Assembly: GCA_963848295.1 (NCBI GenBank)
Contig: CAWKDB010000010.1
Location: forward strand, 1,056,001 to 1,120,000
Origin: an uncultured delta proteobacterium
GTDB taxonomy: Bacteria > Myxococcota_A > Polyangia > Haliangiales > Haliangiaceae
Reading direction: 5' to 3'
Length of the DNA stretch: 64,000 nucleotides
Below the pieces are notes generated by a model. The model was not told the origin of the DNA. It ran no database searches and worked only from the letters and a program-made list of their open reading frames with translations. Shown one piece after another: positions 54,451-57,304 of the stretch (position 1 is the stretch's first letter; each line of letters opens with the position of its first letter). Made by a program: the position numbers and the translations under genes.

Positions 54451-54555
54451 ATCCCAGCACCGTACACCGACGGCCCCGGGCATTGGATCGTCAACGCGCT
54501 CTCGCCTTCTGACGCGTGATGCAGACAAGCAGCAAGGTTGTCGCATGGCGCTGCC

Positions 54556-54642
54556 AAGCTCGACGTCGACGCGACCGTTAACGCCGCGAACACGCGCCTG
54601 CTAGACGGCGGTGGCGTTGACGAAGCGATCCACCGCGGAGGC
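54556..54642 (+). pseudogene. Macrodomain (YmdB-like O-acetyl-ADP-ribose deacetylase) N-terminal remnant
   Basis: KLDVDATVNAANTRLLDGGGVDEAIHRGG matches the macrodomain VNAAN..GGGVDGAIHR motif, then runs into a microsatellite. Confidence 0.75.
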
Positions 54643-54678
54643 GACGGCGATTCTAATGACGCGCTGGCGGTAGGTGTG

Positions 54679-54804
54679 CCGCTACCGGTTCCGGTGCCGC
54701 TACCGGTTCCGGTGCCGCTTCCGCTTCCGCTACCGGTTCCGGTGCCGCTGCCGCTGCCGCTGCCGCTGCCGCTGCCGCTGCCGCTTCCGCTGCTGCTTCC
54801 GCTT
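54679..54804. repeat. Degenerate CCGNNN hexamer array (21 units)
   Basis: CCGCTA/CCGGTT/CCGGTG/CCGCTT/CCGCTG units in phase. Confidence 0.9.
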
Positions 54805-55053
54805 CTCTGATTGGAATTCCGTCGATGGAGGCTCGGGCGGGGCGTCGTCGTCGTCGCCCCTGGCCGCTTGCGCGCTCGCGCCTCGCCGAGCGCCGCGCGC
54901 GCCGACGCCTGCGAACGACAGCCGCCGAGTTGATCGACCGCGATCTGCGAACCGCCGACGGCGCGCTCGTCACGGCGCCCGCGCGCTTGGCGGGCAACGG
55001 GGCGAACGACAACGACGACGCCCCACCCTCACTTGCCCTCTCAGGAGAATCCC

Positions 55054-55377
55054 ATGCCATTCGATGCTCTCGAAGTCTCGCTCACGATGCTGCGTGAGCT
55101 CGCTCCACTCGAAGCGAAGCTCCGGCACCGCCGCAAGTCGCTCGCCAACGAAGTCATCCGCACCGGCGAGAGTGTCGCGCTCAACATCAGCGAAGGTCGC
55201 GCGCGTGTCGGGCTCGATCGGCCCGACTTCTATCGCCGCGCCGCCGGCAGCGCGAACGAGCTGACGACCGCACTGCGGATCGCTGAAGCGCGCGGCGTGA
55301 TCTCGAGCGCCGAGCTCGCTGCGATCGCGCCGCTGCTCGATCGCATTCGCGCGATGCTGTGGAGGCTCACCCACTGA
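55054..55377 (+). CDS. Four-helix-bundle protein (23S rRNA IVP / bAvd-like family)
   Basis: [27 protein letters not shown]...[16 protein letters not shown]...LLDRIRAML. Confidence 0.85.
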
Positions 55378-55393
55378 ATCTCCGACGCGGACG

Positions 55394-55596
55394 CCAGCTC
55401 CGGAGCCGCTGCTGCGTCCGGAGCCGCTGCCGCGACTGGAGCCGCTGCCGCGACCGCAACCGCAACCGGCGTCCGGAGCCGCAAACGCGTCCGAAGCCGC
55501 AACCGCAACCGCATCCGCATCCCGCCGCTGCCGTGCCGCAACCGGGTCCGGTGCCGCTGCCGCAACCGCCTCCGGTGCCGCCGCCGCAACCGCCTC
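55394..55596. repeat. Degenerate CCGNNN hexamer array
   Basis: CCGCAA/CCGCAT/CCGCTG/CCGGTG/CCGGAG units. Confidence 0.8.
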
Positions 55597-56644
55597 CGGA
55601 GAGTCCGACGCCACGCGCCTTCGGCGCGCGGCCGCCGCTCGCCTCCGGCGAGCGCGCGCTCCGGCCGCGAGGCGCCGCAGGCGCCGAGTGCCGGAGGTCG
55701 GACTGCCCGTCTGCTCCTCGGACTCGTTGTGCCCGCGGGACTCGCGCCGCACCGCGCAGCGGCGCGGCGCGGGAACCCGCGCGTCGGAGAGTCCGACGCC
55801 ACGCGCCTTCGGCGCGCGGCCGCCGCTCGCCTCCGGCGAGCGCGCGCTCCGGCCGCGAGGCGCCGCAGGCGCCGAGTGCCGGAGGTCGGACTGCCCGTCT
55901 GCTCCTCGGACTCGTTGTGCCCGCGGGACTCGCGCCCCACCGCGCAGCGGCGCGGCGCGGGAACCCGCGCGGCGGAGAGTCCGACGCCACGCGCCTTCGG
56001 CGCGCGGCCGCCGCTCGCCTCCGGCGAGTGCGCGCTCCGGCCGCGAGGCGCCGCAGGCGCCGAGTGCCGGAGGTCGGACTGCCCGTCTGCTCCTCGGACT
56101 CGTTGTGCCCGCGGGACTCGCGCCCCACCGCGCAGCGGCGCGGCGCGGGAACCCGCGCGGCGGAGAGTCCGACGCCACGCGCCTTCGGCGCGGGGCCGCC
56201 GCTCGCCTCCGGCGAGCGCGCGCTCCGGCCGCGAGGCGCCGCAGGCGCCGAGTGCCGGAGGTCGGACTGCCCGTCTGCTCCTCGGACTCGTTGTGCCCGC
56301 GGGACTCGCGCCCCACCGCGCAGCGGCGCGGCGCGGGAACCCGCGCGGCGGAGAGTCCGACGCCACGCGCCTTCGGCGCGCGGCCGCCGCTCGCCTCCGG
56401 CGAGCGCGCGCTCCGGTCGCGAGGCGCCGCAGGCGCCGAGTGCCGGAGGTCGGACTGCCCGTCTGCTCCTCGGACTCGTTGTGCCCGCGGGACTCGCGCC
56501 GCACCGCGCAGCGGCGCGGCGCGAGAACCCGCGCGGCGGAGAGTCCGACGCCACGCGCCTTCGGCGCGGGGCCGCCGCTCGCCTCCGGCGAGCGCGCGCT
56601 CCGGTCGCGAGGCGCCGCAGGCGCCGAGTGCCGGAGGTCGGACT
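55597..56644 (-). repeat. tRNA-linked 188-bp tandem repeat, 5 full units plus a partial one
   Basis: TGCCGGAGGTCGGACT at 55689, 55877, 56065, 56253, 56441 and 56629 (exact 188-bp period); the last copy is the tRNA 3' end; units differ by only a few SNPs. Confidence 0.95.
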
Positions 56645-56711
56645 CGAACCGACATTCCCGTCAGGGAAGGGGCTTTTGAGACCCCCGAGTCTACCATTTC
56701 TCCACTCCGGC
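56629..56711 (-). tRNA. tRNA-Leu(CAA), CCA not encoded
   Basis: GCCGGAG/CTCCGGC acceptor stem, TGGTAGAC D-loop, anticodon loop CTCAAAA, long variable arm TTCCC-TGAC-GGGAA, GTCGG-TTCGAGT-CCGAC T-arm, discriminator A. Confidence 0.95.
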
Positions 56712-56813
56712 AAAAAGCGAGACGCGCCGGCCACAGGCGCCGGCGCATTCCGTTTCAGAGACGATCGCTAGACGGCGATCAGCACGTGCTGATCGCTTGG
56801 TCTAGCATGCGGC

Positions 56814-56999
56814 TCACATCGCGCCGCCCGAGCCGGCCATGCCGCTGCCGCTGCCCATGTCGGCCGAACCGCCGCCACTGCCAGCCGCAGCCGAGCCCAT
56901 ATCGGAGCCACCCGCCGCGGGGGTGGTGGCTGCCTTCTTGTGGTGGCAGCCAGCAAGCGCCGCCGAGACGAGAATCGCAATCGCAAACATCTTCTTCAT
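56814..56999 (-). CDS. Small Gly/Ser-rich lipoprotein
   Basis: [18 protein letters not shown] lipobox; GAGGA RBS. Confidence 0.7.
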
Positions 57000-57065
57000 A
57001 AGTAGTCCTCTCTCTGGTTTTTCACGCCGCTGGCGCCTGCCAGGCAGCAACTAACACTGGTTGGT

Positions 57066-57257
57066 TCAGCCCCCGCACGGATCGCCGGTCGGGGAAGACG
57101 GTGTGGCAGCGCCGCTACCGGCGCTGCCGCTCGTCGCGCCCGAGCCCTTGTCGGTCATCGTCGGGTCGGGCTTGGGCGTCGTCGAGCCCTTCTTGCCGCC
57201 GCCGCACGCGGCGATGGCGATCGCCGTGACAAGTGCAATCACGAGGGTGGTCTTCAT
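57066..57257 (-). CDS. Small Gly/Ser/Thr-rich lipoprotein
   Basis: MKTTLVIALVTAIAIAAC lipobox; ends DPCGG. Confidence 0.7.
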   Translation of the reverse strand: MKTTLVIALVTAIAIAACGGGKKGSTTPKPDPTMTDKGSGATSGSAGSGAATPSSPTGDPCGG

Positions 57258-57304
57258 GGCTTTCATGGCGGGTGTCACGTGGTTGGCGGTCGCGGCTCGC
57301 GGTG

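Follow-up and report, generated by a model that had tools for sequence, protein, structure and literature searches.

The repeats termed TLRs are defined by a position directly downstream of a tRNA or rRNA gene, and have been known since 1978, though the part of PMC8144298 drawn on here gives them neither a function nor an origin. In E. coli that source counts 22 such repeats at ten loci; each locus has one to five of them, their last 18-19 bp being those of the upstream gene, and RrA, RrB and RrF are described as transcribed and processed, RrB being processed 3 nt past its repeat (PMC8144298). The E. coli TLRs include the tyrT 178-bp repeats, whose RtT RNA (Rfam RF00391) is likewise reported to be co-transcribed and processed. 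The annotated RttR of E. coli lies over one repeat unit.

An array in the genome of an uncultured member of the Haliangiaceae (G000), found in a window, i.e. the whole stretch of DNA that was analysed, of 64,000 nucleotides, has what marks a TLR: a position directly behind a tRNA gene, a copy of the end of that gene, and five full units followed by a partial one. As in E. coli the copy starts at T-loop A58; it is 19 nt with CCA there and 16 nt without CCA here. An earlier reading made from the letters of the window, termed here the sequence-only reading, had described a tRNA-Leu followed by 188-nt tandem units, which ARAGORN, Rfam and TRF all bear out, and had pointed to E. coli tyrT and rtT as precedent, which is indeed the closest known kind. 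The features of the array are as follows.

56629..56711, minus strand: tRNA-Leu(CAA), no encoded CCA (ARAGORN; Rfam RF00005, 53.1 bits)
56441..56628, minus strand: unit 1, 188 nt, first acceptor pair A.C (unit alignment)
56606..56628, minus strand: linker of unit 1, 23 nt, a GGCGCC-TGC-GGCGCC hairpin with a GCA triloop on the other strand
56599..56605, minus strand: in unit 1, complementary to the 3' strand of the acceptor stem (tRNA positions 66-72)
56573..56598, minus strand: hairpin 1 of unit 1, C-GGA-G triloop
56550..56572, minus strand: hairpin 2 of unit 1, C-GAA-G triloop
56542..56549, minus strand: in unit 1, complementary to the 3' strand of the T stem and to T-loop bases 58-60
56457..56541, minus strand: insert Y of unit 1, 85 nt, a long hairpin
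56441..56456, minus strand: in unit 1, direct repeat (16 nt) of the tRNA 3' end, A58 of the T loop through the discriminator
56253..56440, minus strand: unit 2, 188 nt, first acceptor pair A.C (unit alignment)
56065..56252, minus strand: unit 3, 188 nt (unit alignment)
55877..56064, minus strand: unit 4, 188 nt (unit alignment)
55689..55876, minus strand: unit 5, 188 nt (unit alignment)
55597..55688, minus strand: partial unit 6, 92 nt, with linker, acceptor complement, two hairpins and T complement

The Leu(CAA) gene is the single one called by ARAGORN in G000, and the array joins it without a gap as five 188-nt units and a 92-nt partial unit, a copy number that rests on the assembly (TRF: period 188, 5.6 copies, 98% matches, score 2033). 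Units differ from one another at 0-5 positions, e.g. by C for G in hairpin 2 of units 1 and 3 and by a G to A change in hairpin 1 of unit 4. Division of each unit into a 23-nt linker and a 165-nt module, the pair of hairpins, the complement of the T stem, the ACCGGAG of the two units nearest the tRNA and identity of the last 16 nt with the tRNA 3' end are all as first described; the insert, given then as ~83 nt, is present and measures 85 nt between the two 8-nt T helices. The 16-nt tRNA end is repeated six times in the array, with 172 nt of hairpins between successive direct repeats. A family tag, CTC(C/T)G, directly follows the T complement, and insert Y has a T-arm-like build, opened in its loop, together with a further T-arm 3' fragment. 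Since partial unit 6, which ends at 55597 and there adjoins a hexamer satellite, is without a downstream partner, the sole fold available to it is back onto the preceding copy. The pattern of tRNA end, complement and repeat occurs once in the 64-kb window and in 0 of 100 shuffles, and the array is real and non-random. A coding role was rejected, the long ORFs in several frames being read-through of stop-poor GC-rich repeats and 188 not being a multiple of 3, as was a CRISPR, the units being 98% identical and without unique spacers.

The units can pair in two registers. In one, the complement of unit n pairs with the downstream copy in a cloverleaf-like manner; in the other it pairs with the upstream tRNA end or copy and the linker closes the resulting fold-back, of which it is the symmetry centre. 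The same four-way junction is predicted from both. Forced folding of the whole array gives -763.9 (cloverleaf) versus -779.8 kcal/mol (fold-back) as RNA, and -462.5 (cloverleaf) versus -457.4 kcal/mol (fold-back) as DNA; by these models the fold-back register is as stable as the cloverleaf or more so, and with calculated energies that tie, folding alone decides neither the register nor against an RNA cloverleaf. Co-transcriptional folding would presumably favour the cloverleaf register. The module has a z of -4.0 against 100 dinucleotide shuffles, a value also found for the opposite strand, and in a 175-nt precursor the tRNA 3' strand is in the fold-back with a probability of 0.99, which is an equilibrium value with modified bases and tertiary contacts outside the model.

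When modules are folded in isolation each is predicted to fold as the sequence-only reading drew it, acceptor pairing included, with a 7-bp acceptor helix in units 3-5 and one of 6 bp in units 1-2, and then a free A. The T stem runs into the 85-nt insert and the loop of hairpin 1 is 3 nt. Of the tRNA-like four-way junction that had been put forward, the junction itself is conserved as predicted structure and a cloverleaf register is possible in RNA, but the units are without a T-loop, a D-loop and a 7-nt anticodon loop, and ARAGORN and RF00005 call the true tRNA alone and none of the units. The cloverleaf register is secondary, and arises whenever the tRNA end is copied again.

Whether the relevant structure is one of DNA or of RNA is a question on which the loops are informative. 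C-GNA-G triloops make up 23 of the 93 hairpin loops in 11 family elements (shuffles, mean 1.15, maximum 5) and 19 of the 23 are on the template strand, i.e. opposite the tRNA; GNRA or cUUCGg tetraloops are absent from the same 93 loops. Clusters of at least three such hairpins number two in the 7.8-Mb genome, both of them tRNA-linked arrays, and a search for the junction motif in G000 gave two tRNA loci and one unrelated match. According to the part of PMC13037366 used here, an extra-stable DNA mini-hairpin is formed, among 64 triloops, by GNA alone, and DNA confers far greater stability on GNA mini-hairpins than RNA does, the RNA comparison being made for the GAAA loop. A tight four-way junction (at most 4 unpaired bases) is predicted on the template strand of 10 of the 11 elements, and on the tRNA strand of 7 with RNA parameters and 9 with DNA parameters; shuffled middles had the junction in 26 and 45 of 1100 cases (2-4%), the control being on the tRNA strand only. 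Across the family the acceptor/T junction is where the two hairpins are placed, exactly or to within one base. The tRNA strand has two fixed G.T pairs that would be mismatches on the template strand, which favours the tRNA strand. Loop types and predicted junctions together point to folded single-stranded DNA. The same loop-type argument is used in PMC2864571, and bioinformatics is said in PMC5737381 to separate single-stranded DNA from RNA poorly, each as far as the part consulted goes.

Among 66 tRNA calls in G000, 51 have a canonical T loop, and two of these 51, Leu(CAA) and Leu(TAG), have a complement of their own T arm within 300 nt together with tandem end copies.

G000:C10:2152522-2153225 (L036/L068), minus strand: second array, behind tRNA-Leu(TAG), 4.6 units of 140 nt

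This second array carries the complement of its own host, and the core of insert Y is common to both arrays. Similar units behind other tRNAs, which the sequence-only reading had proposed to look for, follow Leu (CAA, TAG, CAG, AAG) and Lys (CTT) genes in the family; by pattern scan, 13 of 138 family genomes matched (reversed control, 0). Two of the 14 places (G460, G500) are not tRNAs and were dropped; G499, probably a chance match, was kept as a miss in the host-matching count and left out of the loop, cluster and junction counts; and G532, a poor fit, was kept in all counts. The tag follows the complement in most family elements and is common to five genera, and its pattern was found in 0 of 333 genomes of the class outside the family. 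At the Leu(CAA) gene the array is absent in all 23 congeners read (24 were searched, one without a match), a set that includes the unpublished G010, counted as a negative only, and one congener with 34 nt of flank. An orthologous element is present in G508, and the metagenome contig L069 has an orthologous 161-nt unit and the first part of a second. In run X1 a contig of 292 nt spans the tRNA and the greater part of unit 1, aligning with 16 differences and 21 gap positions. Among orthologous units the main difference is in hairpin length, which is increased or reduced symmetrically.

In the phylum, 5 of 401 genomes matched (control, 0), with a full array in G283 alone, a tRNA-Ser with a T-arm complement and a degenerate copy in G303, a reversed tRNA-end fragment in G432, and a match in G160 that has no tRNA call. 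A GTDB-wide scan with a restrictive pattern yielded 17 loci, in Clostridia, Patescibacteria, a Rikenellaceae, a Leucobacter and others (L052 was dropped as a repeat of a counted locus and L042 kept despite having no tRNA call), and the insert-Y pattern had 0 matches in GTDB. Scans of viral contigs gave 1 and 0 matches, the one being a clostridial-type unit, i.e. the same design in another phylum. The clostridial L038, L040, L049, L054 and L076, and also L044, L046 and L047, have insert families common to Leu, Thr and Arg tRNAs. At L058 (G441) a cluster of at least 11 tRNA genes, perhaps a phage or island tRNA array, includes a 97-nt near-minimal unit behind Leu(CAG), and at L057 (G440) the element-carrying tRNA-Leu has the anticodon AAG, which is unusual on tRNA-Leu in bacteria. 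A different type of observation is that the congeners L011, L014 and L017 have tandem degenerate second copies of the tRNA-Leu(CAA) gene, one of them called Phe(GAA) by ARAGORN.

Because the search patterns fixed part of the complement, it is two positions per locus that test host tracking. Of 13 family rows, 10 have an exact complement of the host at these two free T-stem positions and three do not; with two orthologues dropped the match is 8 of 11, across six different host stems, against a permutation mean of 1.64 (p 3e-5). For other phyla the corresponding figures are 12 of 16 exact and four misses (mean 6.25, p 0.002), several of the loci being close kin and not independent. Given these counts the covariation test is passed, and the earlier expectation that the complementary strands would follow the host tRNA is upheld.

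The origin of the complement is also pertinent. In every row its continuation reads as the T loop in reverse complement, not as a TTC loop; in G000-TAG, G283, G436, G440 (13 bp), G441 and G503 pairing extends through the discriminator into the flank; and in G436, G440, G504 and G514 the complement is present without a downstream acceptor copy. For these reasons the 3' strand is taken to be the template from which it was copied, and the order of copies is direct - inverted - direct. Where the host acceptor has G.T pairs, the complement follows the 3' strand (G503, L053; by eye). The strand bias of wobble pairs, likewise judged by eye, is mixed: the tRNA strand has A.C in two array variants and at three outside loci, and G.T in the two fixed pairs and at one outside locus. 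In L069 the discriminator position is occupied by T in place of A, and a hairpin with a loop of 3 nt joins the copied end directly to the complement that comes next. Beyond the family, a terminator-like hairpin lies at the centre of symmetry of the complement and recurs after the direct copy (L041, L044, L046, L047).

The immediate surroundings of the array include two further features.

56712..56748, minus strand: terminator-like hairpin with a T run, abutting the 5' end of the tRNA (terminator scan)
55051..55377, plus strand: four-helix-bundle gene, a neighbour and not part of the element (TIGR02436, 45.4 bits; PF05635)

The terminator scan found 2 sites against 1.1 expected in shuffles, a weak excess, and gave no terminator-like site within or after the array. 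The hairpin at 56712-56748 leaves no room for a promoter or leader, and several congeners have a spacer here. No sigma-70 site came from a promoter scan, and the array is at this stage only presumed to be transcribed. Hexamer satellites flank the four-helix-bundle gene at about 55399-55599 and 54677-54803 (TRF); a link between this gene and the array was considered and rejected, there being 30 matches above cut-off in the genome and none beside the Leu(TAG) array. Many of these matches are in close opposite-strand pairs about 1 kb apart. A short ORF at window 54538-54810 (plus strand) runs into the hexamer satellite; its start resembles, by eye, what is presumably a macro-domain fragment, and it is possibly a gene broken by the cassette. 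Upstream of the tRNA, at window 56813-57266 on the minus strand, are two short ORFs, of 61 and 66 aa, that begin like lipoproteins, end in Gly/Ser-rich tails and have no family match. G000 also has numerous near-perfect tandem arrays with a period of exactly 57 nt, which belong to at least two sequence families and have GNA-type hairpins (among them C2:41667, C2:158776, C10:73701, C10:3927607, C10:2727945, C10:4706693 and C11:700842), and arrays of 84-85 nt at C2:162447, C10:2836769 and C10:230468. An Rfam E-value scan over the window gave sub-threshold M23, mir-3960 and isrG matches, taken as chance; a gathering-score scan gave 0 matches and missed even the tRNA, so it is not a valid negative.

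The explanation preferred here, to which a probability of roughly 0.55 is given, is that the tRNA-linked repeat is a folded single-stranded DNA element that originated when the end of the gene was copied by fold-back, followed by tandem amplification via its direct copies. A nascent strand would fold back at a hairpin behind the tRNA and copy the gene end backwards to the T loop, where, the T arm being an inverted repeat, it could return to the forward template and recopy the 3' end together with the downstream hairpin. The outcome of such a return would be a miniature inverted triplication. The family scaffold, i.e. the two junction hairpins, the tag and insert Y, would pass between tRNA genes with its arms corrected against the new host, and unequal exchange between direct copies would build the array; the mosaic unit variants are consistent with exchange between copies. 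In a read-through transcript the direct copies would give the complements partners other than the tRNA, allowing the tRNA to mature, and RNAs of ~165-190 nt would be by-products, like rtT. Processed RNAs as by-products are plausible. Charged mimics are unlikely, since charging is not to be expected without a tRNA elbow. Plain fold-back copying has against it that a contiguous complement would be expected, as in L051, L053 and E. coli tyr. The hairpins at the acceptor/T junction, in the places of the D and anticodon arms, are also unexplained by copying and fit selection on a tRNA-like shape equally; their placement therefore keeps an integrase or resolvase substrate and a tRNA-shaped RNA in play. 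Tentatively, the elements may be an overlooked and widespread class of very small, non-autonomous mobile single-stranded DNA four-way junctions that move between tRNA genes and rewrite two arms per host, and it is a similarly speculative extension that the E. coli TLRs, the clostridial and patescibacterial units and the present family would be independent sequence families that share a single mechanism, their folded DNA being read by a host or mobile recombinase. No enzyme linked to the element was found in nine Y1 transposase flanks or among neighbouring proteins.

It is rather unlikely that the array is instead a minimal integrative element, with a tyrosine integrase acting in trans to insert a small circle at the T-loop site, the junction being its substrate (compare integron attC) and each insertion restoring the tRNA while displacing its 3' end. 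The direct repeat does start in the T loop in every case seen, and presence of insert Y at two tRNA loci, of the tag in five genera and of several T-arm fragments per unit would be in keeping with arrival of this sort, but the proposal explains the direct copy and not a host-matched inverted copy running past the discriminator. Beside the array there is no integrase or cargo gene (none of ten neighbouring proteins scanned is an integrase), and near-identical tandem units with a partial end fit amplification better than repeated arrival. The T loop is a known integrase sublocation (bioRxiv 2020.11.02.365908, in the part used here). What the sequence-only reading had put forward, a transcript cut into 165-nt tRNA-shaped RNAs that would be acceptors of CCA or leucine, or decoys, is judged unlikely. 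The targets of such decoys would be tRNA-binding enzymes or anti-tRNA nucleases. The predicted fold of isolated modules, with acceptor helix, free A and four-way junction, the branch point at the acceptor/T boundary across the family, the lack of a terminator-like site after the tRNA, and the RttR annotation and RrB processing referred to above all speak for it. However, LeuRS, RNase P and RNase Z read the tRNA elbow, and the units have neither the loops nor a tRNA call from ARAGORN or Rfam. Further, the 3' strand is the template of the complement, the discriminator is T in L069 and base-paired in six relatives, and four relatives, those without a downstream acceptor copy, are unable to close the mimic. 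The DNA-type loops, mostly on the other strand, and the absence from 23 of 23 congeners also count against mimicry, as, weakly, does the lack of an RNase Z above family cut-off in this 85%-complete genome.

A cis role for unit 1, the fold-back opening the acceptor and T stems of the tRNA so as to lower or time its yield, or providing a processing or termination signal, has to recommend it the equilibrium fold-back probability of 0.99 once 175 nt are made and the weakened first pair of the tRNA-proximal units; it is nonetheless quite improbable, most relatives being without the element, five further units being superfluous to it, the element being present also after Leu(TAG) and Lys(CTT) genes, and the loops being DNA-type. 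Lastly, an assembly artefact is very improbable: copy number does rest on the assembly and no contig of the listed runs spans the array, but the units vary at 0-5 positions, orthologues are present in G508, L069 and the run X1 contig, and similar arrays occur in G283 and at the second locus.

The locus, with its relatives, contributes three testable facts: a host-tracking inverted copy, a conserved tight four-way junction and DNA-type loops. Should fold-back copying be correct, ends of tRNA genes would be recurrent sites of templated fold-back copying throughout bacteria, and among annotated small RNAs several may be its by-products, whereas if the units were after all mimics, a family-specific class of tRNA-shaped RNAs would exist. 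No published description of the inverted copy or of the junction was found, but the subscription papers Rudd 1999 and Bosl and Kersten 1991 may mention it.

Several known systems offer parallels. The attL and attR of islands integrated in T loops share the direct repeat from T loop to 3' end, but here there is no integrase or cargo, and there are a host-matched inverted copy and near-identical tandem units. Another is the rearrangement by template switching known as tandem inversion duplication or inverted triplication (compare ODIRA). Its likeness to the array is in the direct - inverted - direct order with palindromes at both junctions; the difference is that the present case involves ~15 nt and not kilobases, is recurrent at tRNA ends and has a family-specific scaffold at the junctions. 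With REP, BIME and REPIN elements and with single-stranded DNA sites of attC type the array has in common clustered GC-rich hairpins with GNA triloops, and likely structure at the level of DNA, but there are two loci in G000, both at tRNA ends, and the form is branched and not a simple hairpin. A link to RAYT found no backing in G000, where nine Y1 transposase flanks were without similarity apart from one 20-nt match at E 0.015.

The comparison with E. coli was made with 14 of the 22 K-12 units, which follow tyr, lys, pro or arg genes, the copies at rrB and behind serV and alaX being outside the 14. Each of the 14, partly by eye, holds a host-matched T-arm complement: exact complements are 10 nt at tyrV, 8 at argV and 11 at lysQ and lysV, and those seen by eye are 9/10 at other lys genes and 7/8 at argZ and argQ. 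This internal complement, like the fold-back register and the DNA-type triloops, was left out of the sequence-only reading. E. coli units too have hairpins with GAA or GCA triloops, GNA accounting for 6 of 20 loops against 0.11 in shuffles, but those are mainly on the tRNA strand (5/6) and the ones here on the template strand (19/23). The E. coli complement is contiguous and mostly shorter, whereas here it extends over the entire acceptor stem, with two hairpins dividing it into a tight four-way junction, and unlike the E. coli TLRs the array family is patchy and strain-specific. The RF00391 model had 0 matches at E 0.001 in G000, with 150 of about 1500 candidates scored and the E. coli control detected, and there was no RtT match at E up to 5 over the array. 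The array is accordingly TLR-type by position and design, but of an unrelated sequence family with a branched complement, and presence of the same inverted copy in the E. coli TLRs makes the old TLR question testable in a laboratory strain.
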